Shown here: piece after piece, positions 2,475 to 36,849 of the stretch
Numbering within the stretch: the stretch's first letter is position 1
How the letters are laid out: every line of letters begins with the position of its first letter
IMG/VR virus record: IMGVR_UViG_2778261087_000007
Length of the DNA stretch: 36,849 nucleotides
Direction: 5' to 3' (one strand)
Source of the DNA: a virus
Taxonomy: Duplodnaviria; Heunggongvirae; Uroviricota; Caudoviricetes
Program-made: the position numbers and the translations under genes
Notes under the pieces: model-generated
Seen by the model: the letters and a program-made list of their open reading frames with translations, nothing else
The model's database searches: none
What the model was told of the DNA's origin: nothing

Positions 2475-4214
2475 TCAGGCGATAAGGTCGCGGTATTTTT
2501 CCCGCAGGGAGGATGACTGTCTGGCATCACCGGTAAATTCACCACTGTTGGTGGGTGTGCCTGTGCCAGGATGTGCGTGTGTGGCAGCATGTGTTGCCAG
2601 TTGTTCAATGAGATCCAGAATATCAACGAACAACGTCATCAGGTTCAGGCTGTCGCCACCCTGTGAACCATTTCGGCCTATAAACAGGGTCGGCGCAGAG
2701 AGGGAAAGACCACCACTGGCGGTGGTGGTCTGTGTACCGCTGATGTTCTCTGTGATATTCCCGCTTACTGTGCTGTTAACATTACCGCCGATGGTTTCCT
2801 GCCTGTCAGCACTGATGCGGCGTATCTCTGCCTGTAATTCCGCAATAAGGCTGTTTGCTTTCATCCTGATATCACCGGTGGCCACAATACCGTAATCACC
2901 ATCAGAACCATGGACGATCTGCCCTGCCATCAGTGAACTCGTCCCGAGTACCGTGGTACTGTCTGTGGCCTGTACGGTTGTTGTGCGGGTTGTCGTCCGG
3001 CGGCTTTCCTGGTCGCTGGTTATGATTCTGTGTGCAGATTCTTCCCTGATTTTCTGGTCCGTTTCCCGGTGCCATGTGCCGTCACGGGTAACCCTCTGAA
3101 ATACTTCTGCACGCTGTTGCTGTAGCTGCTCGCCAGGCTGGATATCAGGAAGATTCAGTCCGGATGGGAGTATCTGCCTTATTACCGGTTTATCTGGCCG
3201 TCCTTCGATATGCGCGATTTCCACTATCGTTCCGGCTTCCGGATAAGAAAAACAACCGGCCTCATTTCCGGCCATGGGTACCGGAAGCGGCACGGCAGGA
3301 TATACAGGCGTGTTGTTGCTATCGTTGCCGTTTTCGTCCAGTAACTGCAGGTCAACAGCATAACGTGGGCGAAAACTGTCTGCCACATCGCCAAGCGTCG
3401 TGGATTCTGTTGGCGAGATAACGCGGGCCAGTCTTGGGCGTAATGTTCCGTCAGCCAGCTCCGGAAACTGCGATTCTGTCTGACGGCGCAGAGGTGAGCT
3501 GGATACGACAGAACCATCCTGGCGAAACCTGTCCCATGTCAGTGTCATGGTTTCATTATGAATGGCCACACGCGTGATCCGTCCTGCAGGAAGGTTAACG
3601 CCGGGGCGCAGAGTCTCTATCAACATGATATCCATACTGTTGCCGGCGCTGTGCCCCAGTGCATATTCATCAGGAATTTCCGGGATGGTCAGCGATGCAA
3701 AGCGTGAGTCACTGGCGCTGCCAACGAATACAGAACCATCCGGCATGGGATGCCAGACGTAATCCTGAATGCTGAATATCCTGCCAAGATGATCAAGCAG
3801 GCGGGTACCGCTTCCGCTGTGAGTGACGCAGGGTACTGGTGTGGATACATAGGCAGATGACGCGGTAATAAACACGATACCGCTCTTTTTTCCGAGATCA
3901 TCAAGAACATCACGCAGAGTCGGGTGCTGGATGACACACGGAAAACTGAAATCCAGTACCGCGGCAGCTTCCCTGATGAACAGACGGCGGGCGCCGTTTT
4001 CTGCCGGTTGATCGCGCTCAACGTAACCTGAGAAATAACGCCAGGCTTGGCCATCACGCCCAAAATCAATCTGAATCATGGCACCGGCCAGCGTGCTGCG
4101 CTGATTCGGCAGGGTGACAAAACCTCTTCCTGATGCGTTCAGTGACAGGACCAGACTGATGTCTGTTATTTCTGTCTGTTTACCGTTGACCATGCATCTC
4201 TGAATAATTTTCAT
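2475..4214 (-). CDS. baseplate hub / central spike-like protein (possible gpD-gpV type fusion)
   Basis: 579 aa; C-terminus LATHAATHAHPGTGTPTNSG resembles the His-rich apex of P2 gpV (..HTHKHPGDSGGTTG..); last gene of the tail operon; N-terminal similarity to hub proteins is only a pattern-level impression. Confidence 0.5.
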   Translation of the reverse strand: MKIIQRCMVNGKQTEITDISLVLSLNASGRGFVTLPNQRSTLAGAMIQIDFGRDGQAWRYFSGYVERDQPAENGARRLFIREAAAVLDFSFPCVIQHPTLRDVLDDLGKKSGIVFITASSAYVSTPVPCVTHSGSGTRLLDHLGRIFSIQDYVWHPMPDGSVFVGSASDSRFASLTIPEIPDEYALGHSAGNSMDIMLIETLRPGVNLPAGRITRVAIHNETMTLTWDRFRQDGSVVSSSPLRRQTESQFPELADGTLRPRLARVISPTESTTLGDVADSFRPRYAVDLQLLDENGNDSNNTPVYPAVPLPVPMAGNEAGCFSYPEAGTIVEIAHIEGRPDKPVIRQILPSGLNLPDIQPGEQLQQQRAEVFQRVTRDGTWHRETDQKIREESAHRIITSDQESRRTTTRTTTVQATDSTTVLGTSSLMAGQIVHGSDGDYGIVATGDIRMKANSLIAELQAEIRRISADRQETIGGNVNSTVSGNITENISGTQTTTASGGLSLSAPTLFIGRNGSQGGDSLNLMTLFVDILDLIEQLATHAATHAHPGTGTPTNSGEFTGDARQSSSLREKYRDLIA

Positions 4215-26625: not shown

Positions 26626-27053
26626 TGTGATGTTCTCCGGTGTTGTGTCGGCCTGGCGAATGAATTGCGTTGTGGTGAAAAGACCATTTCCGCCAGGGCG
26701 GCCTTGCGATTGACGACATTCAACATTCTGGCCAGCGCTGCGTTGTGTTTGTGTGCCTGTTCTTCGTGGTACTTCTGCATGATTTTCCCTGCAGGTGTGC
26801 ACGGCTCCGACTCCTCCGGCGAACGGCGGGTACGAACTGAGACAATCCAGCTCTTATGTTCATTTCCCGGCCGTCTGTTGAGTATATCTGTAATGGTGGT
26901 TTTCGTGGTGCGGTCAGGATTGACCACTGTGATTTCCAGTTCATCGCCGGGTTGTGGTCTCGTGGCAATGTTGTTCAGAGTCAGTAATGGCGTGCGCTGG
27001 CGCATCATGTTGTCAAAGCGCTGGCGCTGCATGGTGCAGTAAAAACGGGTCAT
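26622..27053 (-). CDS. hypothetical protein downstream of replication gene
   Basis: 143 aa; ATGA overlap with the replication gene stop. Confidence 0.5.
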   Translation of the reverse strand: MTRFYCTMQRQRFDNMMRQRTPLLTLNNIATRPQPGDELEITVVNPDRTTKTTITDILNRRPGNEHKSWIVSVRTRRSPEESEPCTPAGKIMQKYHEEQAHKHNAALARMLNVVNRKAALAEMVFSPQRNSFARPTQHRRTSQ

Positions 27054-29578
27054 TGTGGCCCCTCCGTTTTCTGTGCAGGGTTGAGCTCAATGCGGCGGGT
27101 GTTGTCGTTCCAGTACGCGGTGCGCCCGTCATCCAGGAGAACACGGGCCCCGTTACGCACGGAAATAATGGCTGCGTCAGGCAGTTGTACGCCCAGTGCA
27201 TCGAGTTCGCAGGTGATTTGTGCGGTGATGTGTGGCTCTGCTGTCAGTGCGACATCCACGCGAACGCCGTCAGTGGGCGCACTGATGCCGCCGTTTTTCA
27301 CGGTTTCTGTGTCAGGTGGCGGGTTTTTCAACTGCCGGGTGAGTTGTTTTCTCTGTACCGGTGTCAGCGACCTCAGCCATTCGGTTAAATCACCTTCCGG
27401 CAGGGTAAGTCGTTGCTCCCTGCGTCTGTCCTGTTGCCCTTCTGGCGTGGCATTACTGGTTAAATTCTGGTCATGGGGACAGTTATTGCCACGAGTCCAA
27501 GGGGCGACAAAGTCGCCCTCAACGTCAAAATCAGTTTCGCTGGCGCTGTCTTCACCTTCCGGCTTACGTCTGACCAGTTTCCAGGTGTCCGGATGGGTGC
27601 ATATGGTGTACTGCTCCCCGAGTGACGGTGCACGGACACCGTAAATACGTTGCGGAAATTCGCCGTAGTCGTTGGCCTCTTCGGCGGTTTCGTATGCGGT
27701 GCGGACCAGGTACGTGTTGCGGGGAATGAGTACACCACCCTGCCTGGTGATGTAGGTGGCAAAACATCCCACATCAGCGGCGGCCAGTATGGCGTCAATG
27801 TCTTCATTATCGAGGCGCTGTGGTGCCTTCGGGTTACGGGCTATCTGCCCGGCAAGACGGCGGAGTTCGCGCCATACCTGGCGTGGCGGGATACCGAAGA
27901 ACTGGAACTGGCGGATGCGGTGAAGGGTCGCCCAGCCGATGGCGTTCTCCACGGTTTCTGCCATTGTTTTGCCTGATTCCCTGTCTGCGTATGGTTTGCC
28001 GGTTTTCGGGTCATTCCCCATAAATACGCTGGCGTCCAGGTTCTTACCGATATAGGTCGCGATATAGCTTGCCGGGGTGCCTTTTGCTGGGTCGATTTTT
28101 TCGCATTTAAAACGCGGGGAGATATCATCACCCAGCTCTGCACGGTCCTCCCTGATGGCGGCGTTGCGCATGATTTCAGTGATACGGGCTTCGTTTTCCG
28201 GACTGGTGAATACCAGCATGTGCCAGTGCGGTGTGCCGTCGTGGTGAGGCTCCACGGTGCGTACACCGTACCAGCCCAGCCCGGCTTTGCTGATGGCCTT
28301 GCGGACGGCAGCGAAAAATCTGTAAACCAGGTAATCACTGGCATCGCGTACCGTTGCCCCGCAGAATTTCGGGTTCAGGCTGCCGTCATCGTTCACGCTG
28401 TGAAAACGGGAAGGGGCGGTGACGGTGACGAAAAACGCCACATCGCCGCGCGCTTCGGCGACCTGCTCCATTCCCCGGACGCAGGCCATCATCTCGTTGC
28501 GACGGTTGCGCGGATTGGCGAGTCCGGCCCAGTAGATATCCTCAAGGCTGAACCGCTCTCCCTCTTCGTTCTCGACATCCCAGGCTTTCAGAAAATCGCG
28601 GGTGCGCTGGCGTTTTTCGCGCCAGTCCAGTAACGCTTCATGGCTGATGTATACCGACTCCTTACGTGACACCAGACCTGCGGCGCGTAACAGCTCTTCC
28701 CGCCAGATGTCGCGAAGGTGTCTTAACTGACCGTTCCACCAGTTCGCGCAGGAAAGACGCATGACTGCACCCGGCACCTGTTCCAGGTCGGGGGCGGTGC
28801 GGCGGTCGGGTCTGATTTCCAGCGACGGCCAGCAGGGCGGGGTGACACCCAGTTTTAACGCCATATGTGCCAGCGGCTGGTAGGTCAGCAGCCAGGTGTA
28901 CAGGTCATCATCCCCCTTTCCGGTCCTTTTGATGGCCTCATCACATGCGCGCTCCAGTGCGGCGGAAAATGCGGTGGCGGTCAGGGTGGCAAGGCGCTGA
29001 ATGTCGTCGCGCTCCAGTTGCGGGAGTATCAGGAGTTCATCCAGTCGTTCGCGGGCAGCGGTGGCCTTAAATGCTGTAGTGGCAAACCGTTCATTCACCT
29101 GTCTGATGCGTTTCAGACGGGCGCGCAGCCCGTGGCGAACGAAGTTATCCGCTGCGTATGCGCTGTTGTTCTTAAGTTCTTTCTGACGGGCATCGTCCTG
29201 TTTGCGTCTGAAGAACGCCAGCCTGCGAATCAACGGTCCGGCGAGAAAGGCCGGAAGGGCGCGCAGCTCTGCCATGGCCTCGGATACCAGCGTGGGTGGG
29301 TTATCGCGTCTGTACCTGGCCAGCTTTTCCAGCCGTATCTGCCGCTCTTCGTCGTGATGAAGGTGCGAATTAATCTGCCTGCCTTTTTCTGTGCTTGTCA
29401 GGAAGACGACGGTTTCTTCATCCAGCCGGGCATTAATCCGGATGTCTTCGTTGATGTAGCTCTGAATTGCCCTGCGTAATGCCGTCGGCTTCTGTGGTAA
29501 CGCTCTGCCGAAGGTTTCCGGGTCGATAACGGGCAGTGGAGCGTTCCATGACCAGGCCCATTCGCGGTTGGTGTTCAT
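27050..29578 (-). CDS. rolling-circle replication initiator, gpA-like
   Basis: about 842 aa; HUH-type motif PHWHMLVF and paired tyrosines YIATYIGKN; ATG at 29578 preceded by GGGGAG (track start is GTG at 29587). Confidence 0.85.
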   Translation of the reverse strand: MNTNREWAWSWNAPLPVIDPETFGRALPQKPTALRRAIQSYINEDIRINARLDEETVVFLTSTEKGRQINSHLHHDEERQIRLEKLARYRRDNPPTLVSEAMAELRALPAFLAGPLIRRLAFFRRKQDDARQKELKNNSAYAADNFVRHGLRARLKRIRQVNERFATTAFKATAARERLDELLILPQLERDDIQRLATLTATAFSAALERACDEAIKRTGKGDDDLYTWLLTYQPLAHMALKLGVTPPCWPSLEIRPDRRTAPDLEQVPGAVMRLSCANWWNGQLRHLRDIWREELLRAAGLVSRKESVYISHEALLDWREKRQRTRDFLKAWDVENEEGERFSLEDIYWAGLANPRNRRNEMMACVRGMEQVAEARGDVAFFVTVTAPSRFHSVNDDGSLNPKFCGATVRDASDYLVYRFFAAVRKAISKAGLGWYGVRTVEPHHDGTPHWHMLVFTSPENEARITEIMRNAAIREDRAELGDDISPRFKCEKIDPAKGTPASYIATYIGKNLDASVFMGNDPKTGKPYADRESGKTMAETVENAIGWATLHRIRQFQFFGIPPRQVWRELRRLAGQIARNPKAPQRLDNEDIDAILAAADVGCFATYITRQGGVLIPRNTYLVRTAYETAEEANDYGEFPQRIYGVRAPSLGEQYTICTHPDTWKLVRRKPEGEDSASETDFDVEGDFVAPWTRGNNCPHDQNLTSNATPEGQQDRRREQRLTLPEGDLTEWLRSLTPVQRKQLTRQLKNPPPDTETVKNGGISAPTDGVRVDVALTAEPHITAQITCELDALGVQLPDAAIISVRNGARVLLDDGRTAYWNDNTRRIELNPAQKTEGPQ

Positions 29579-29583
29579 GGCGC

Positions 29584-29997
29584 TCACTCCCCGGCAGTTG
29601 CCCGTTGAAATGCGGCACGGTACAGCACAAGAAGGCGCCGGTATTCGTCAATAAAGCCTTCTGCCGTTTTAATCCCTTTCACTGCCACGCTGTGGGTTGT
29701 CATGTCCAGTACGAGCGCCATTTCTGACGATGACCAACTGATTACGCTGTGGTCGTGCCCGTTGATGTGGAACAGGCCCAGATTCAGGCTGTGATTCAGG
29801 TCTCTGACGTCAACACGGTAACGGTCATCAACGGTGAAGGAGAAATCACCTGATGTGGTGATACTGCTGGCTGCCTGTTTACAGGCGCGGCGGTAATAGT
29901 CATGCCAGTCATTGAGGCGGGAGGCGAGGTGTGGATCCACCGACCACATCCAGTTAAAAAAATCCTGAATATCTGAAAGTTCCTTAACGTTCTTCAT
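29584..29997 (-). CDS. hypothetical protein upstream of replication gene
   Basis: 137-aa ORF whose stop overlaps the replication gene start region. Confidence 0.5.
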   Translation of the reverse strand: MKNVKELSDIQDFFNWMWSVDPHLASRLNDWHDYYRRACKQAASSITTSGDFSFTVDDRYRVDVRDLNHSLNLGLFHINGHDHSVISWSSSEMALVLDMTTHSVAVKGIKTAEGFIDEYRRLLVLYRAAFQRATAGE

Positions 29998-30631: not shown

Positions 30632-31629
30632 ACGGAGTACGGCATCAGCGGTTGTTCTGCGGTGGAAGAGGTAAACATCGCGCTGTAAGTTGTATCTCCC
30701 GTCACCGTGCCGCAGTCCGGACAGTAGCCGCCGCCATGGCGACCACAGGCGTCGCACTGTCTCAGGGTGGCGATAACCTCCGGTGCTGGTTTTCGGGTTT
30801 TTGCGCCAACGCTTCGCGGTGCCTGGATGCGGTTCATCCGGTAGCCCTGATAAATGCGCCGTGCTTCCGGTGTGTCGGAGCCGGAAATGGTTATGCTGGT
30901 CATTCCACCTGTTTCCTGTGAAAGACGGTCAAGCGCTGCTCTCAGGCGAACGTGTTCGTCCTTCGTGAAGGGTTTTTCGTAGGCGGTGAAATTGTCCCAG
31001 CCACTGAATGACAGGTAAGGGGGATCGCAGTACACGCAAAGCGTACTACCTATGCTGAACAGGTGACTGGCAGTGTTCAGCGTTTTCTGAAAATCGCCAT
31101 GAACAAGCAGTGTTCTGGTGCTGTTTGCCTTGTCTGCAAATGCGCGGATTTCCCGTTCAGGGAAGTAGGGAGCCCGGTAGCCACCGAATGGGACATTAAA
31201 ATCCCCTTTTTCATTCACCCGGTACAGGCCATTAAAGCAGTGCCGGTTGAGGTATAAAAACATGGCGGCCAGCCGTAATTCGCGACGGTCGCTTATTCCC
31301 GTGCTCAGGAATGCATGATTCTCTGCATTAAAGGTGTTACGGATAGCGAGATAGTCAGTCCTGTTATTGTGTTCCAGGAACAGGTCTTTTGCTTCGTTGA
31401 TCAGACAGTCAGTGTTGTCCCGTGCTGCCCGACAGAAATTAATCAGTGCACCATTGGAATCACCCAGGATGTATCGGCTGTAACTGGTGTTCATGAATAC
31501 CGATGCGCCACCCACGAACGGCTCAACCAGGCAGTCCGCTTCTGGCAGATGCGCCTTCAGTGTGTTCATGATGCGGCTTTTCCCGCCCACCCATTTCAGC
31601 GGTGTGCCGGATAACAGTTCTTTGCTCAT
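30610..31629 (-). CDS. dam: DNA adenine methyltransferase (Dam family) with Cys-rich C-terminal extension
   Basis: 339 aa; N-terminal PLKWVGGK, FVGGASVF and catalytic DPPY motifs; C-terminal CDACGRHGGGYCPDCG zinc-ribbon-like segment; good SD AAGAGG. Confidence 0.85.
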   Translation of the reverse strand: MSKELLSGTPLKWVGGKSRIMNTLKAHLPEADCLVEPFVGGASVFMNTSYSRYILGDSNGALINFCRAARDNTDCLINEAKDLFLEHNNRTDYLAIRNTFNAENHAFLSTGISDRRELRLAAMFLYLNRHCFNGLYRVNEKGDFNVPFGGYRAPYFPEREIRAFADKANSTRTLLVHGDFQKTLNTASHLFSIGSTLCVYCDPPYLSFSGWDNFTAYEKPFTKDEHVRLRAALDRLSQETGGMTSITISGSDTPEARRIYQGYRMNRIQAPRSVGAKTRKPAPEVIATLRQCDACGRHGGGYCPDCGTVTGDTTYSAMFTSSTAEQPLMPYSVNCYRTE

Positions 31630-31676
31630 AACGCGGCCTCTTTGTTACAGGTTTCGTGTGTCAACAAATCCCATGA

Positions 31677-31724
31677 AAGCGGTTTTTGTGTGTGCATGGC
31701 GATTACTCAGTCCGGTAGCAGTTC
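31677..31724. repeat. direct repeat copy B (48 bp) spanning the stop of the gene upstream of dam
   Basis: Same sequence as copy A with a 2-nt shorter T-run. Confidence 0.85.
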
Positions 31725-32261
31725 GTACAGCACAATGTCGTCGGCAGTGCGGCGGCGACTGTAAAGAAGATATGCTGTGTTAGTGGTCGCTTTTATTTGC
31801 AGTGTGTGATTGATGTGTTTTGCTATCGCGGCGAATGTCATACACTGTTCATCACGTAGTTCTGTTACCAGTTCCACCAGGCGATCGCTGTATCTGGTCA
31901 GGTGGTGCAGATCTCCGCATTTCTGCAGTCTGTAACCACGTTTACTCAGGTGTTCCTGTACTGTGCGACGGGTACATCCCACCATGACTGCCATTTCCTG
32001 CGCTGTTCTGGTGTGACGGTTTCTGATGAGAAAATTGATTTCTTCTCTGCTCAGCGTCTTTCTCTTGCGACCAATTAATCCACGATCACGTAAAACACGA
32101 ATTCTGTGCATAACTGCGCTGCGGGTGCGTTGAATTCGTTCAGCCATCTGGTATGTGCTGTTTTCCTGATAAAGCGAGGTAAGCATCTCGTCTTCCTGCC
32201 GTGTCCATGGTTTCACGTGCGCAGGGGCTTTGCCTGGTATCCCCATTGGTTGAAGTATCAT
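31707..32261 (-). CDS. putative DNA-binding protein with repeated HTH-like segments
   Basis: 184 aa; three segments of pattern W..E(D/E)..L...... followed by R/K-rich helix (KPWTRQEDEMLTSLY..., LSREEINFLIRNRH..., TRYSDRLVELVTEL...). Confidence 0.45.
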   Translation of the reverse strand: MILQPMGIPGKAPAHVKPWTRQEDEMLTSLYQENSTYQMAERIQRTRSAVMHRIRVLRDRGLIGRKRKTLSREEINFLIRNRHTRTAQEMAVMVGCTRRTVQEHLSKRGYRLQKCGDLHHLTRYSDRLVELVTELRDEQCMTFAAIAKHINHTLQIKATTNTAYLLYSRRRTADDIVLYELLPD

Positions 32262-32287
32262 CGTGATAACCTCCGTGCCTGTGCCGG

Positions 32288-32539
32288 TTATTCGGTCGGG
32301 TTCAGGGTGTAATCAATGGCGTTTTCAATACGGCGTTTAAGCTCGCGGTGGATCTCACCCGGTGTTACTGGTGCGCCAGGACCGCTCAGCGTTGCCGTGA
32401 AGTCGTCGATTTCCTCCATCAGCAGATTGCGGAGTACAGCGATGTGGTGGCGTGCATCTTTTCCGGGTTTGCGTGCGTTGGTGGTGTACTTGCTGATCAT
32501 GGTTGCAGTTCTCCATAGCCGTGCCTTTCTGATTTCCAT
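32288..32539 (-). CDS. hypothetical early-region protein
   Basis: 83-aa ORF; alternative ATG at 32500 would give an ATGA overlap with the upstream gene. Confidence 0.4.
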   Translation of the reverse strand: MEIRKARLWRTATMISKYTTNARKPGKDARHHIAVLRNLLMEEIDDFTATLSGPGAPVTPGEIHRELKRRIENAIDYTLNPTE

Positions 32540-32748
32540 GCTCCCCGGATGGTCATCACTTCGCGTACGGTATTTGCGACTGCTGTGATTTGTGTGCCGT
32601 CAGTCAGATGGATGTAGAGATAATCAGCGTCTGACGGGCACGGCGTGGTTGTTGTGATCAAATAACTTTCCACCATGAATTCGCGGCCCACGGCATCGGT
32701 GAAATGCGTCAGCATGGTTCGCCTTGTGGCAGTGAATATGTTGTGCAT
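32497..32748 (-). CDS. hypothetical early-region protein
   Basis: Start placed at MHNIFTATRR (32748); track ORF extends to 32832 and would overlap the upstream gene. Confidence 0.4.
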   Translation of the reverse strand: MHNIFTATRRTMLTHFTDAVGREFMVESYLITTTTPCPSDADYLYIHLTDGTQITAVANTVREVMTIRGAWKSERHGYGELQP

Positions 32749-32761
32749 CGTCCCGCCCCCT

Positions 32762-33040
32762 TTATGCTGAAAAGCGACCTGACTGTGCCCGGAGTTCTGC
32801 CAGTTCGCGCTCAAGGCGGAGGGTTTTCGCATGGAGTGCGCCGATGATGTTGTTTGCTGACGTCATGAGCATGTTTTCTATTTGCAACGTCTGGCTGACA
32901 AAAAATGATGGGCTGTTATCGTAGTCCATTTCCGATAGCACTTTCTTTCTTGCATTAATCAGTTCTGCCAGCGCTTTTTGTGTGGCTGTGACAACTTCCT
33001 TGCTGGTAAACATTTCGCTGATTTTTTCATTGCTGCACAT
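32762..33040 (-). CDS. hypothetical early-region protein
   Basis: 92 aa, predicted helical; ATG preceded by ACGGAG. Confidence 0.45.
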   Translation of the reverse strand: MCSNEKISEMFTSKEVVTATQKALAELINARKKVLSEMDYDNSPSFFVSQTLQIENMLMTSANNIIGALHAKTLRLERELAELRAQSGRFSA

Positions 33041-33120
33041 TGTTTTTCTCCGTTTTCAAGATGAGTGAATTCCTCCGCGGGTGCGGATTGTTTGCTGGTT
33101 TTCCTGTTTAATCTGGCGTT

Positions 33121-33246
33121 TTATTTACGGCGTTTTTCGCCAGTAAATAATGATTCGATATCTTTTACGGAATCAATAATCCTTACGATGCCAATCGCGC
33201 AGAGCACGGAAATAATAAGAATCAGCCATGAGATAAATATATTCAT
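33121..33246 (-). CDS. small membrane peptide (41 aa), not in the ORF track
   Basis: MNIFISWLILIISVLCAIGIVRIIDSVKDIESLFTGEKRRK; single hydrophobic helix plus charged tail; ATGA overlap with the stop of the upstream 81-aa gene. Confidence 0.4.
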   Translation of the reverse strand: MNIFISWLILIISVLCAIGIVRIIDSVKDIESLFTGEKRRK

Positions 33247-33488
33247 GCTGCCACCTGTGAATAATAAGGTTCGATAATGTCAGAACCGTTAAACAGTTCT
33301 GCCACAATGCTTTTTAATTCTTCCTGTGCTTCTTTGTCGTCGCTGGCAAAGGCATGAATAAACAGTCCATAGATAGCCTGTTCCATTAATTCGCGTGCAG
33401 TTACGTCTTCCTTCACTCCCAGCTCTGCCAGGCGGAAGTGATAACGTTCCAGTGCATGGTTCACCAGTGTTTTATAGGCTTCGTTCAT
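33243..33488 (-). CDS. hypothetical early-region protein
   Basis: 81-aa acidic ORF, ATG start. Confidence 0.45.
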   Translation of the reverse strand: MNEAYKTLVNHALERYHFRLAELGVKEDVTARELMEQAIYGLFIHAFASDDKEAQEELKSIVAELFNGSDIIEPYYSQVAA

Positions 33489-33507
33489 TGTCTGAATCCT
33501 CCGTTTA

Positions 33508-33858
33508 TCACCTGCGATATTGAGGATGCTGAAAACTACGACCGCTGATTAATCGGTCTGCTGTTCTTAATGCTTCGTGCAATGTGAAATCCTGTCCGAA
33601 CTGGTCATCACCGCGAGTCAGGTAATAACAGGTGTTTCCGGTAATCGGGTTGCGTGCGCCTCTGTGTATGACAATTCCGGCATCATTAATCAGCCAGGTG
33701 TGTTTACCGGTTTGTTTAACCAGATACCCGTCAGGTGTGGCGTGTGTTTCCTGCAGGCTGTAGCGTTTTGCACTGACAGCACTGGTGGAGAAACGGTTAG
33801 CGTGGCGTTCTGCTCCGTTGCGGAAGCGTTGCTGTGAAGAATTGTGCTGTTGCTTCAT
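33508..33858 (-). CDS. hypothetical early-region protein
   Basis: Start placed at MKQQHNSSQQ (33858); track ORF extends to 33906. Confidence 0.4.
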   Translation of the reverse strand: MKQQHNSSQQRFRNGAERHANRFSTSAVSAKRYSLQETHATPDGYLVKQTGKHTWLINDAGIVIHRGARNPITGNTCYYLTRGDDQFGQDFTLHEALRTADRLISGRSFQHPQYRR

Positions 33859-34000
33859 ACAAAAATATCCCGCTGCTGTTGCGAATTTGTGCCGGGTTTT
33901 AACCATGCCCGGCGCATGGTTTTGTGGTATTTTCCCACCGCCCGCAGTCTTGAAGGGTCTGTAAAGGGCGCATGTTTAACAAACCACAAATGAGGTTTAT

Positions 34001-34237
34001 ATGACTCAAAAATCAGTACCTGTTTATACGCCCAGTGAACTTGAGTGTTTGAGCGTTAATAATCATGCCTGCCTACGTTTCCATTATGATTTAGGTAACG
34101 ATGCTGAGTTACCTAAAGCTGGAGAGTTGTTTACGGCCTTAACTCTTGAGCAAGCAAAAGATCTTGTTGTTTTTCTTCAGCAATACATCTCAAAGGCTGA
34201 GATTGCAGAATCCTTAAGCTCTAAATCACGTCATTGA
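34001..34237 (+). CDS. small hypothetical protein on the opposite strand of the early operon
   Basis: 78 aa; ATG preceded by GAGGT at 5-nt spacing; 3' end overlaps the convergent minus-strand gene by about 7 nt. Confidence 0.45.
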   Translation: MTQKSVPVYTPSELECLSVNNHACLRFHYDLGNDAELPKAGELFTALTLEQAKDLVVFLQQYISKAEIAESLSSKSRH

Positions 34238-34722
34238 TTCATGAATCCGAGGAACTTCCCTTTTTTGAAGTACCGCCGGTTCATTTTTACTGAGTCAACC
34301 TGAAGGCTTTGGCTTTCTTTTATATCGGGGGTGGCAGTCCCCGATATATTTCGTGATTCAATTAACATTGATTTGTTATTCATAATCTGCCTGTAAAGTT
34401 CCAGGGCTTCTTCGGCAGGAAAACGGAGCATGACACCGCATGCAGGTTCTAAAATCATTCCAATAGTTCCTTTAGCATCATCACGACAAAAATGACCGTA
34501 TTCATCGTCGTGACGCAGGGTGACATCTTTCAAATCTTCGCCATTCTGAAGCTTTGATTTTAATGCCATCAGGCCAGAGAACGTTCTGTGTAATTCGTGG
34601 TAGTCAACGCTGATTTCAACCTGTGGTTTACCCGGAAAAACCAGCAAAAGCTTCTGGTGTGGTTTTTCGTTTTTCAGGGTTTCCAGTCGTTCCAGTAGTG
34701 CTTTGTCTTCGTGGTTTGTCAT
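34231..34722 (-). CDS. hypothetical early-region protein
   Basis: 163 aa from MTNHEDKALLERL (ATG 34722). Confidence 0.5.
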   Translation of the reverse strand: MTNHEDKALLERLETLKNEKPHQKLLLVFPGKPQVEISVDYHELHRTFSGLMALKSKLQNGEDLKDVTLRHDDEYGHFCRDDAKGTIGMILEPACGVMLRFPAEEALELYRQIMNNKSMLIESRNISGTATPDIKESQSLQVDSVKMNRRYFKKGKFLGFMNQ

Positions 34723-34803
34723 TTCAAAGCCCCAGCTACAGTAACCATGCATCTCGCTGTTCTTTCTGGCGTGCAAAGAATGCGTCGACGCTATTGATGT
34801 TGC

Positions 34804-35331
34804 TTATGATAAATCGCTCTCGTGTTCCCTGCGTTTTTCCAGTTTTGAGCTTCTACCCATATAAACCCGTTTTCCGTTAACGGTTTGGCAGTCTTCTTTG
34901 TCTGCTGGAGAGAACTTTCTTTTCTGGCGGTCATACGTCCAGTAGCTTTTCCAGTTGTGCCATTCTGGTGGTTCGCACTCTGGTAGTTCGTCGGCCAACT
35001 TGTCCCACTCTTTGGCGTTAAACCACCATACGCCGTCTGAATCTTCATCTTCCGGGTTTGTACGTGTTTTATGCCCTGGCATTTGTCCACGTGCCACGGC
35101 AGTACGTAGTGCCAGTTTTGTTAACCCGACATATGCAGCACCTTTTTCCAGCGAGCAAAGTCCGGCGATTGGTCCATCTAGTCGAAGTGTTGCTCCTCTT
35201 TTGTAAGTGCGACGAGGTTTACTTTCCTGGTGTTCGCCATCGTTGGCGGCGTTAATGGAGTCGCTTGGTGCGTCACTTTCTTGAAGTGGCGGGAGGTCAG
35301 ATAACTCTTTATCGGCAATGATGTTCCGCAT
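34804..35331 (-). CDS. Cox-like excisionase / switch regulator with N-terminal extension, uncertain
   Basis: 175 aa divergent from the C repressor; segment VGLTKLALRTAVARGQMP...GVWWFNAKEW resembles the P2 Cox HTH region; ATG preceded by AAGAGGA. Confidence 0.45.
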   Translation of the reverse strand: MRNIIADKELSDLPPLQESDAPSDSINAANDGEHQESKPRRTYKRGATLRLDGPIAGLCSLEKGAAYVGLTKLALRTAVARGQMPGHKTRTNPEDEDSDGVWWFNAKEWDKLADELPECEPPEWHNWKSYWTYDRQKRKFSPADKEDCQTVNGKRVYMGRSSKLEKRREHESDLS

Positions 35332-35445
35332 TTGTTATCCTCTTGCGTTGGTGCGCTTATCGCGCCTTGTTATGGTTTGTTTTGGTTTGTTTTGGTTTGT
35401 AAAGATAATCGTACGGTTATCTTTGTGCGAGAGGTTAATACTCAA
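35332..35445. promoter_or_regulatory. immunity switch region (divergent promoters and operators)
   Basis: Three tandem tggtttgttt units (35373-35402) and near-perfect palindrome GATAATCGTACGGTTATC (35404-35421) between the divergent cox-like and C genes. Confidence 0.55.
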
Positions 35446-35787
35446 ATGGTTATCTTGTCAATAGACTATGCGGAAAAGTTGCGTCAAATACGTAAGGCAG
35501 AGGGGCTAACACAAAAGCAGTTTGCTGATATCACAGGACTATCTTTAGCAGCCATAAGGAACTATGAATCAGGGCAAAAAAGCGCCAGAGCAAAAATCGT
35601 TGAGACTGTTTTGCAGGTAGATCGATTCGAAAAGTATATGTTGTGGTTATTAAAGGATAAAACGCTACCTGCCGCCGGGCAAATAGCCCCGGCTCTCTCT
35701 CTTGATGGCTCTTCTCAGTCGGAGGGCGATCAGGCTTCAACCGACGCTATCCAAAAATCACCCCGATCAGGCCGCAATGCTGGCTGA
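35446..35787 (+). CDS. immunity repressor C (P2 C-like)
   Basis: 113 aa; LTQKQFADITGLSLAAIRNYESGQ HTH and FEKYMLWLLKDKTLPAAGQIAPAL closely parallel P2 C (..YYESG.., ..FTKYTLWFMTNQ..GQIAPAL). Confidence 0.8.
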   Translation: MVILSIDYAEKLRQIRKAEGLTQKQFADITGLSLAAIRNYESGQKSARAKIVETVLQVDRFEKYMLWLLKDKTLPAAGQIAPALSLDGSSQSEGDQASTDAIQKSPRSGRNAG

Positions 35788-35856
35788 CGCTACACATTGA
35801 GCGAATTGCATTTCGCAAGGAGTGCCTGATTAATTTATCCGTTGGAGGGGCTAATC

Positions 35857-36849
35857 ATGTCGATTAAGCAACTCAAAGACGGACGTTATAAGGTTGATGT
35901 AAGACCACAGGGTGCTGAGGGTAAGCGGATTCGAAAAACCTTCACCCTGAAATCGAAGGCCCAGGAGTTTGAGAGGTATGTTTTACAGAATTTTCATGAC
36001 AAGCCGTGGCAGGCAAAACCAGCTGATCAGCGGCGGTTATCTGAACTGATAGAGGACTGGTGGATGCTTGACGGACGTAATCAGCCTTACGGAGATTCCT
36101 ACAGGGTCAGGCTGGAAAAGGTGATACGTGAAATGGGAGATCCACGCGCCAGCCAGATGACGCGAAAATTTATGCTTGAATATCGGTCAGAGAAATTACA
36201 GGCCGGATTAATGCCGTCCAGCATTAATCGTGACTTGTGCGTTTTGTCAACGATGTTCTCAGTATTGATTGAGACGGAGGTTTTTCACAACGCGAACCCT
36301 GTACGCGGTATACGCAAACTGAAAGTTCAGAACACAGAAATGGCCTTTCTTTCTGATGATGAGATTGATCGGCTTCTTGAGCGACTCGAAGGTGATGCGC
36401 GTCGTGTCGCCATTCTGTGTCTTTCTACGGGAGCTCGGTGGGGTGAGGCGGCGGAATTACGCGGGGAGCATATCGTCGGTAATCGCGTGACGTTCTTCAA
36501 CACCAAGAACGGGAAGTCTCGTTCGGTTCCGGTGTCTGATGCTGTGCTCTCGCTGATTAAAACCCGCCGAACCGGGCCGCTGTACGATGTCGATTATCTC
36601 CGGTTTCGCGAGATCCTCCAGGAGGTGAAGCCTGATTTGCCAAAAGGACAGGCTACTCATGTGATGCGTCATACGTTCGCCACGCATTTCATGATGAACG
36701 GGGGAAACATCGTTACCCTGCAACGGATTCTGGGACATGCCACTATTCAGCAAACGATGACTTATGCGCATTTTTCACCGGACTTTTTACAGGACGCAAT
36801 CAACTTTAATCCGCTGGCTGAAAGTGTCCATAAACTGTCCATCGATTAG
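35857..36849 (+). CDS. int: tyrosine integrase (P2 family)
   Basis: 330 aa from ATG at 35857 preceded by GGAGGGG; arm-binding N-terminus MSIKQLKDGRYKVDVRPQG..GKRIRKTF and C-terminal HVMRHTFATH...LGHATIQQTMTYAH catalytic region; stop is the last codon of the window. Confidence 0.9.
   Translation: MSIKQLKDGRYKVDVRPQGAEGKRIRKTFTLKSKAQEFERYVLQNFHDKPWQAKPADQRRLSELIEDWWMLDGRNQPYGDSYRVRLEKVIREMGDPRASQMTRKFMLEYRSEKLQAGLMPSSINRDLCVLSTMFSVLIETEVFHNANPVRGIRKLKVQNTEMAFLSDDEIDRLLERLEGDARRVAILCLSTGARWGEAAELRGEHIVGNRVTFFNTKNGKSRSVPVSDAVLSLIKTRRTGPLYDVDYLRFREILQEVKPDLPKGQATHVMRHTFATHFMMNGGNIVTLQRILGHATIQQTMTYAHFSPDFLQDAINFNPLAESVHKLSID

Follow-up and report, generated by a model that had tools for sequence, protein, structure and literature searches.

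Genomic context of ORF78

The DNA analysed (IMG/VR record IMGVR_UViG_2778261087_000007, a member of the Caudoviricetes), the whole 36,849-nt stretch of which is referred to as the window, includes, at its right end, the immunity/early region of a Peduoviridae (P2-like) prophage. The integrase and repressor genes of this region are located on the plus strand, and the early operon is located on the minus strand. A plus-strand open reading frame of 78 codons (ORF78) is embedded between the second gene of this operon and a DUF4761 gene, in an arrangement consisting of the following features:

27050-29587, minus strand: gpA-sized ORF, on the replication side of the early operon
Beyond the DUF4761 gene, up to the gpA-sized ORF, minus strand: DUF4754 gene and further early genes
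33508-33858, minus strand: DUF4761 gene (PF15958, E = 2.8e-45), the next early gene downstream of ORF78
33992-33995, plus strand: Shine-Dalgarno sequence GAGG
34001-34237, plus strand: ORF78, ATG start, TGA stop at 34235-34237, 78 aa
34231-34722, minus strand: neighbour gene convergent to ORF78, second gene of the early operon, 163 aa from ATG
34804-35331, minus strand: Cox-family gene (profile search), first gene of the early operon, 175 aa
35332-35787, plus strand: HTH repressor gene, immunity region
35842 to the end of the window, plus strand: integrase gene, immunity region

[quoted passage not shown] Indeed, the GAGG motif is spaced 5 nt from the ATG start codon of ORF78, and the two convergent genes share a stretch of 7 nt (34231-34237), the stop end of the neighbour gene being located at 34231.

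The ORF78 family

The first homologues of ORF78 were found in Citrobacter (94% identity) and Serratia (68% identity). A profile search retrieved 38 clusters (90% identity level) of 41 to 87 aa, nearly all of 66 to 82 aa, which occur in prophages of many Enterobacterales genera, including Citrobacter, Serratia, E. coli, Yersinia, Erwinia, Pectobacterium, Photorhabdus, Salmonella, and others, and all of which are annotated as hypothetical without a Pfam domain. An exhaustive scan of 1.84 billion representative sequences with an ORF78 HMM returned only 19 matches (50% identity representatives). The small proteins among these are true members of the family; three long matches (442 to 2559 aa), with several short matched stretches, look spurious. 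A contig of 206 kb from a metagenome collection (L182; JACXXQ010000004.1) carries a copy that is 100% identical to ORF78 of the window, together with the same variant of the conserved element described below, and probably represents the same or a sister prophage.

Between the window and Citrobacter, the proportions of synonymous and nonsynonymous differences in ORF78 were 0.32 (pS) and 0.03 (pN), respectively, with a dN/dS of 0.08. In distant pairs, the synonymous sites were saturated, yet pN amounted to only 0.2-0.35. Judged from these substitution patterns and from a number of homologues far beyond chance, ORF78 is a real gene under purifying selection. Its shortness and the absence of an annotated family or fold match might suggest a chance open frame without a product. 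This explanation has a negligible probability, as length and sequence are conserved across genera despite the saturation of the synonymous sites and a confident structure model was obtained; the substitution pattern alone already refutes it.

The ORF78 protein has a mass of 8.7 kDa and a pI of 5.5, hence is mildly acidic, and contains neither a transmembrane segment nor a signal peptide or hydrophobic segment. The AlphaFold2 model based on the family alignment was confident (pLDDT 83.8) and predicted a beta-hairpin (residues 13-28), a short strand, and a long C-terminal helix (residues 49-75), so that the product is modelled as a small soluble protein consisting of a beta-hairpin and a helix. 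No match was found in Pfam, NCBIfam, PHROG, PADLOC, or by fold comparison. Similarly, screening of ORF78 and its neighbours against PADLOC-DB 2.0 gave zero matches, and none of the DNA-binding folds or profiles of antitoxins (HTH, RHH, AbrB, and Phd) was found in ORF78.

An exchangeable cassette in a conserved cargo slot

ORF78 is part of an AT-rich unit, the boundaries of which were indicated by a collapse of sequence identity and by GC content:

About 33990-34370, plus strand: cargo cassette, consisting of the Shine-Dalgarno sequence, ORF78, and the 3' UTR

The GC content is 40.4% for the cassette and 39.2% for ORF78, compared with 47-48% for the flanks and 50.7% for the window. E. coli prophages located next to dmsA are 90-97% identical to the window in both flanks, and identity falls to the background level within the cassette. 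The drop occurs at ~33990, thus at the Shine-Dalgarno sequence, and identity is regained at ~34350-34380. At the same position, these prophages carry other plus-strand ORFs, encoding a 155-aa protein of the ECs1072 family or a 60-aa protein. An even closer comparison was offered by a viral contig (L060; IMGVR_UViG_2737471860_000010) that is ~100% identical to the window over 31170-33220, 33570-33970, and 34420-36770, and in which ORF78 is replaced by an unrelated 60-aa ORF. Flanks of ~100% identity around a different cargo indicate a recent swap. From these alignments, ORF78 together with its 3' UTR is an AT-rich cassette for which near-identical phages have exchanged unrelated small ORFs, the exchange being most simply explained by homologous recombination in the conserved flanks. 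The same pair of sequences displayed a second mosaic patch at 33220-33570 of the window, where the DUF4754 region is only ~50-65% identical and its surroundings are ~100% identical.

The position of the cassette, referred to as the slot, was recovered in ~80 contexts and is always found between the immunity module and the replication module, in P2-type as well as in 186-type phages; the genomes of P2 and 186 themselves lack it. The flanking immunity modules are of the C/Cox kind, of several types, or of the CI/Apl/CII kind, and the replication modules begin with orf78-B, B, or DUF4761, or, in SEN4/SEN5, with cox itself. In the window, the immunity side consists of int, C, and cox plus one gene, and the replication side extends from DUF4761 to gpA.

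Among the cargos sampled, ORF78 was the commonest (14 of 73); its related loci were retrieved for the 20 closer sequences out of the 38. The other cargos, again mostly single ORFs of 30-160 aa, comprise the ECs1072 family, two families of 60 aa, a family of 91 aa, and several singletons, as well as an acidic peptide of 32-39 aa followed by a protein of ~155 aa with two transmembrane segments. Representatives of the cargo families gave no informative profile match (Pfam for all, PADLOC for three only), and no known defence system was recognised among them. Likewise, PADLOC returned no system when the cargo and neighbour proteins of the window and two E. coli loci were screened, the ECs1072 protein showing a weak, sub-threshold similarity to Cas7f.

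A few of these loci merit separate mention. One cargo family of 92-94 aa (L025, L059, and L117) matched GhoS just below the Pfam threshold (20.0 bits versus 21; E = 7e-4). GhoS is the antitoxin endoribonuclease of a type V toxin-antitoxin system. In Yersinia phage vB_YenM_42.18 (L007), the annotated 221-aa minus-strand gp08 (2547-3212) looks like a mis-call; the plus strand behind the conserved element contains a 39-aa acidic ORF and encodes a 155-aa protein for which the sequence suggests two transmembrane helices, homologues of which occupy the same slot in other phages. Another viral contig (L067) contains two tandem copies of the conserved element (10747-10763 and 11632-11648), 885 nt apart. 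The second copy is followed by a protein with two transmembrane segments, apparently a second cargo unit, and the first one by only a doubtful 39-aa ORF.

The location of ORF78 within a regulatory region and its small, soluble product, a property shared with many anti-repressors, would be compatible with a regulator of the life cycle of the phage itself, such as an anti-repressor or a modulator of Cox or C. However, near-isogenic phages carry unrelated ORFs instead, the family occurs together with heterologous immunity systems (C/Cox of several types and CI/Apl/CII), and several copies of ORF78 are pseudogenised (L147 and L150), which makes such a role quite improbable.

The convergent neighbour gene

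The neighbour gene was listed as an ORF of 181 aa starting from TTG (34776), and its more likely start is the ATG at 34722, which yields the 163 aa found in homologues. Loci with three unrelated cargos share 77-85% identity in the core of this protein (aa 1-120). The tail (aa ~121-163; 34231 to ~34362) is encoded antisense to the 3' UTR of the cassette, and the length of the protein varies with this tail, being 135, 162/163, or 202 aa. The ratio pN/pS was 0.21 for the core and 0.59 for the tail, based on small numbers, so that the tail is, as far as these substitutions indicate, under weaker constraint than the core. No match to a family or structure was found for the neighbour gene in Pfam, NCBIfam, PHROG, PADLOC, or PDB.

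The overlap of 7 nt arises because the reading frame of the neighbour gene runs into the inserted cassette up to the first stop codon, and it gives no sign of a functional pair. A convergent toxin-antitoxin or defence pair formed by ORF78 and the 163-aa gene was nevertheless considered, in view of the convergent orientation, the 7-nt overlap, and the presence of convergent pairs at the same position in the E. coli relatives too. As described above, only the tail of the neighbour changes and its 120-aa core is kept under any cargo. Moreover, the ORF78 family occurs without the neighbour: the Serratia homologue is located directly between cox and gene B, and the homologues in 186-type contexts are located behind a cII homologue. 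No toxin-antitoxin or defence profile was matched either. Such a pair was hence rejected as very improbable. The same observations speak against the antitoxin-like function that had been proposed for ORF78 initially; its sole candidate toxin partner is the convergent neighbour, with which it is not co-transcribed.

Putative expression signals of the cassette

Upstream and downstream of ORF78, the plus strand contains a set of putative expression signals:

33925-33933, plus strand: extended -10 element TGGTATTTT (TGnTAnnnT), consensus match, conserved across lineages
33939-33970, plus strand: leader stem-loop, at the predicted 5' end of the cargo mRNA
34321-34358, plus strand: terminator-like hairpin (34321-34348; TATATCGGGGG..CCCCGATATA) followed by TTTCGTGATT, at the 3' end of the cassette

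The initial annotation had named the stretch 33860-34000 for promoter prediction. An extended -10 element is present there, and no recognisable -35 element accompanies it, so that the cargo promoter is a candidate by consensus match only. The extended -10 was found in 66 of 82 distinct contexts, 0-9 nt past the conserved element, compared with ~3% expected by chance. Within the hexamer, positions 3-5 vary freely (TATTTT, TAATTT, TAGGAT, TACTAT, TATTCT, and others) next to an invariant T1, A2, and T6, a substitution pattern that is the signature of a -10 element. Transcription of the cargo is predicted to start near 33940.

The predicted mRNA would begin with the leader stem-loop. When folded one by one, all 20 distinct leaders of the class of the window formed a hairpin at the same position with different stem sequences; RNAalifold found nothing on the MAFFT alignment of these leaders, in which the hairpins are misaligned. 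A CA-rich unstructured tract (AACCAACCACAAGGA-like) extends from the leader hairpin to the Shine-Dalgarno sequence. This motif is shared by unrelated cargos, the copy of the window (33972-33990) being deviant (ACAAATGAGG), and it includes ACAAGGA, which resembles the CsrA binding consensus. Extended -10, leader, and Shine-Dalgarno sequence are thus common to different cargos.

A hairpin is located downstream of each cargo. That of the window lies inside the tail-coding part of the neighbour gene and is followed by a weak T-tract (T at four of the eight bases after the hairpin), and a simple terminator scanner made no call. The Citrobacter copy has kept the hairpin with a changed loop and a better T-tract, and the Serratia copy possesses a clean, textbook terminator of its own. 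With regard to the initial suggestion that ORF78 may split the operon into two units, the terminator hairpin of the plus strand is devoid of a U-tract in the minus orientation, and no conserved promoter was found on the minus strand downstream of the cassette. Because of these two observations, read-through from the early promoter across the cassette is the default assumption, as far as the sequence can indicate. Further terminator-like hairpins, GC-rich and present on both strands, were noticed within the 3' part of the repressor gene (35664-35693), where a covariance model (R1) gave a weak, chance-level match.

The initial suggestion of an independently regulated passenger gained comparative support, as the cassette is swapped, has a GC content of 40% versus 47-51% around it, and is provided with a conserved extended -10 and a terminator-like hairpin. 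Since a structured, strongly conserved element immediately precedes the -10, regulation may exceed that of a constitutive promoter. An establishment promoter similar to 186 pE or lambda PRE was rejected because of an unrelated sequence and the terminators behind the cargo; in particular, the sequence at the cargo promoter is unrelated to the CII half-sites of 186 pE (ATGTTTG / CAAACAT).

Alternatively, the unit could act mainly in cis or as an antisense RNA, with a conserved promoter opposing the early promoter and the identity of the ORF being secondary. The early genes and the lysis-lysogeny decision would then be tuned by transcriptional interference or RNase III cleavage, as for lambda OOP and, loosely, 186 pE. 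Indeed, the promoter, the leader, and the adjacent element are kept under any cargo, the slot, located immediately after cox, the 163-aa gene, or cII, is in every case oriented towards the early promoter, and the plus-strand transcript of the window would end inside the coding region of the neighbour, resulting in an overlap of 118 nt. However, purifying selection clearly acts on the proteins encoded by ORF78 and other cargos, and the strong Serratia terminator is located 127 nt before cox, leaving little or no antisense overlap. Also, P2 and 186 function without the slot, and the 186 pE/CII site is unrelated in sequence. A predominantly cis-acting or antisense unit is therefore considered unlikely.

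A conserved 29-nt element with two interleaved inverted repeats

Directly upstream of the extended -10, a short element was found that is conserved and covaries:

33891-33919, minus strand: 29-nt element composed of two interleaved inverted repeats (a-b-a'-b')

On the plus strand, it reads GCCGGG (33891-33896), TTTTAA, CCATG (33903-33907), CCCGGC (33908-33913), G, and CATGG (33915-33919). It lies 12-35 nt upstream of the next early gene; in the window, the DUF4761 gene starts 32 nt past it. Its position coincides with the -35/spacer region of the cargo promoter too. In part of the lineages (DUF4761 and B contexts), the element is preceded by another conserved block, GTTGCGAAT (33877-33890 in the window). 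Within the arm that reads CATGG on the minus strand, an ATG (33904-33906) is in frame with the DUF4761 gene and would yield an ORF of 132 aa. This frame is probably coincidental, as the RefSeq homologues use the later ATG and measure 116 aa.

The first collections of the element were anchored on its own sequence and hence displayed no variation; unbiased variants were obtained from loci retrieved through the cargo proteins. Both repeats turned out to vary in a compensatory way, namely as CCACG/CGTGG, CCCTG/CAGGG, ACCCC/GGGGT, and ATCCCT/AGGGAT for the CCATG/CATGG repeat, and as GCCGGA/TCCGGC, CCGAT/ATCGG, and CCGGC/GCCGG for the GCCGGG/CCCGGC repeat. Co-deletion of one pair occurred as well, and broken pairs were found in two copies accompanied by a pseudogenised ORF. 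A covariance-model alignment, in which one helix was modelled, contained 81 matches, 32 of which were distinct. Pairing was found in 95.1% of the alignment cells versus 90.5 ± 0.6% after shuffling, a value that none of 500 shuffles reached, and 14 cells were changed on both sides versus 3.9 ± 1.5 in the shuffles (0 of 500); these shuffle tests are inflated by sequence relatedness and hence provide support rather than proof. Pairs 4-18, 6-17, and 14-33 change on both sides, most of the covariation is carried by the unmodelled helix, and slid controls of the alignment gave only 16-43% pairing.

Read as minus-strand RNA, i.e., as part of the early-operon transcript, the element of the window fits an H-type pseudoknot with a stem S1 of 5 bp, a loop L1 of 1 nt, a stem S2 of 6 bp, no L2, and an A-rich L3 of 6 nt. 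Among the variants, L1 measures 0-2 nt, L2 0-1 nt, and the A-rich L3 3-9 nt. In plus-strand RNA, the two helices would be mutually exclusive, and the element is also located upstream of the predicted transcription start. The loop lengths thus fit an H-type pseudoknot on the minus-strand RNA only, and the repeats could instead represent two alternative hairpins or a structure at the DNA level. Wobble pairs leave the strand undecided (six cells for each), and the nested folds (-19 kcal/mol for the plus strand and -13 kcal/mol for the minus strand) cannot represent a pseudoknot. A scan of 33400-35400 on both strands against Rfam 15 in E-value mode returned four chance-level matches, none of them on the element.

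Several other identities of the element were rejected. An intrinsic terminator is contradicted by the T-run after the stem, which is not conserved on the plus strand, and by the lack of a U-tract on the minus strand. A sigma-54 promoter (TGGCAC-N5-TTGC) would require a fixed spacing; although GG-N10-GC is mimicked by the minus strand of the main variant, indels in the T-run alter the spacer by 1-3 nt between lineages. A rigid palindromic operator or class II activator site does not agree with a distance to the -10 of 0, 6, 8, or 9 nt, nor with the variable spacing inside the palindrome and the covariation of both interleaved palindromes. Finally, a coding sequence is contradicted by the indels in the T-run, which break the frames.

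In two loci (L166 and L167), the cargo promoter is kept and an intact adjacent element is missing; therefore, promoter and element are separable. As the element always accompanies the slot while the downstream gene varies, it is suspected to serve the early transcript at the point where the latter leaves the convergent cassette. It could protect or gate the replication genes once the transcript has crossed the cassette or, alternatively, could be riboswitch-like or an operator that binds a protein.

Comparison with known systems

Small H-type pseudoknots with an A-rich loop 3 include the operator of T4 gene 32 and the aptamer of the preQ1-I riboswitch. In its early-operon RNA reading, the 29-nt element likewise displays two interleaved stems of 5-6 bp, an L1 of 0-2 nt, no L2, and an A-rich L3 of 6-9 nt; it differs from these in that it has no Rfam family match and in that its wobble pairs do not settle the strand.

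As to the unit as a whole, lambda bor is transcribed opposite to its host operon and is expressed in lysogens. Such morons (lambda bor and P2 old, tin, and Z/fun) resemble ORF78 as extra AT-rich genes, presumably dispensable in the case of ORF78 too, that are absent or replaced in close relatives, that possess promoter-like and terminator-like flanks, predicted from sequence in the case of ORF78, and that are oriented against the surrounding lytic operon. Coding antisense to lytic genes is a characteristic of moron loci (PMC7067206). Unlike the known morons, the ORF78 slot is located inside the early operon, at the junction of immunity and replication, and its different cargos share one conserved putative promoter and leader. 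The moron positions described for P2 are A-Q and G-FI (PMC3573123), and the slot is at neither of them.

Similarly, the slot shares with the defence hotspots of P2 and P4 that a small locus between conserved phage genes carries unrelated cargo that turns over rapidly. The main P2 defence hotspot is located between gpA and gpQ (Rousset et al. 2022, PMC9122126). The ORF78 slot is situated outside of it, on the integrase side, between cox (plus one gene) and DUF4761, ~4.4 kb from the gpA-sized ORF. It falls inside the loosely defined 'integrase-primase' minor hotspot of P2 (NAR 2026, PMC13586616). The cargos differ from those of the hotspots, being mostly single ORFs, with no PADLOC system among the ones screened. 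Arrangements consisting of only proteins of less than 120 aa were discarded in the hotspot survey (PMC9122126); therefore, slots like that of ORF78 would be missed. In the literature, no description was found of the ORF78 slot, the ORF78 family, or the 29-nt element.

The cargo promoter further resembles lambda pO/OOP and 186 pE, in that it is located shortly downstream of the early promoter and directed against it, and in that its transcript can extend over the 3' end of an early gene, as predicted for the ORF78 unit. In contrast with these systems, the unit encodes a selected protein and has its own predicted terminator, with no read into the repressor gene and int; nor does it share sequence similarity with pE or the CII half-sites. 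Finally, the exchange of unrelated ORFs behind a shared promoter is reminiscent of integron gene cassettes, the left boundary of the slot being a ribosome-binding site. Unlike integron cassettes, the slot has no associated integrase or attC-like site.

Proposed role of ORF78 and its slot

Based on these comparisons of sequences, ORF78 is probably a moron, i.e., a self-contained accessory transcription unit placed opposite the early lytic operon in a conserved cargo slot. In the lysogen, the extended -10 would fire without a -35 while C represses the early promoter, resulting in the production of ORF78. The mRNA would start near 33940 with a protective stem-loop and end at the hairpin at 34321-34348. 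During lytic growth, transcription from the early promoter would cross the cassette in antisense and collide with the ORF78 unit. Tentatively, the ORF78 protein might bind a protein target in a conflict between prophage and host or between phages, for instance in the exclusion of competing phages. A more encompassing reading, which is possible and somewhat doubtful, would hold that the element functions as an RNA pseudoknot in early-operon transcripts of many Peduoviridae and is tied to the slot, that it forms an integron-like platform together with the extended -10 and the leader, and that ORF78 is a conflict effector.

On its own, ORF78 would be an ordinary prophage moron, though uncharacterised. 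Less ordinary is its locus, a hitherto undescribed cargo slot that lies within the early operon of both P2-like and 186-like phages and in which unrelated small ORFs, most of them too short for the cut-offs of hotspot surveys, are exchanged behind one conserved putative promoter and leader. Beside it is a short element with two interleaved, covarying stems and no Rfam match. Should the cargos turn out to be conflict genes, the slot would concentrate new small anti-phage or anti-defence proteins in one compact place. An element functional as RNA would, in turn, illustrate how an essential phage operon is kept working despite a convergent insert.

Elsewhere in the window, the region 1468-1898 is ~78-79% identical to a region of P88-like and Xuanwuvirus phages annotated with a 'MokW-like host killing protein' (hok/mok-type), whereas no other part of the first 25 kb matched isolated phages by megablast.
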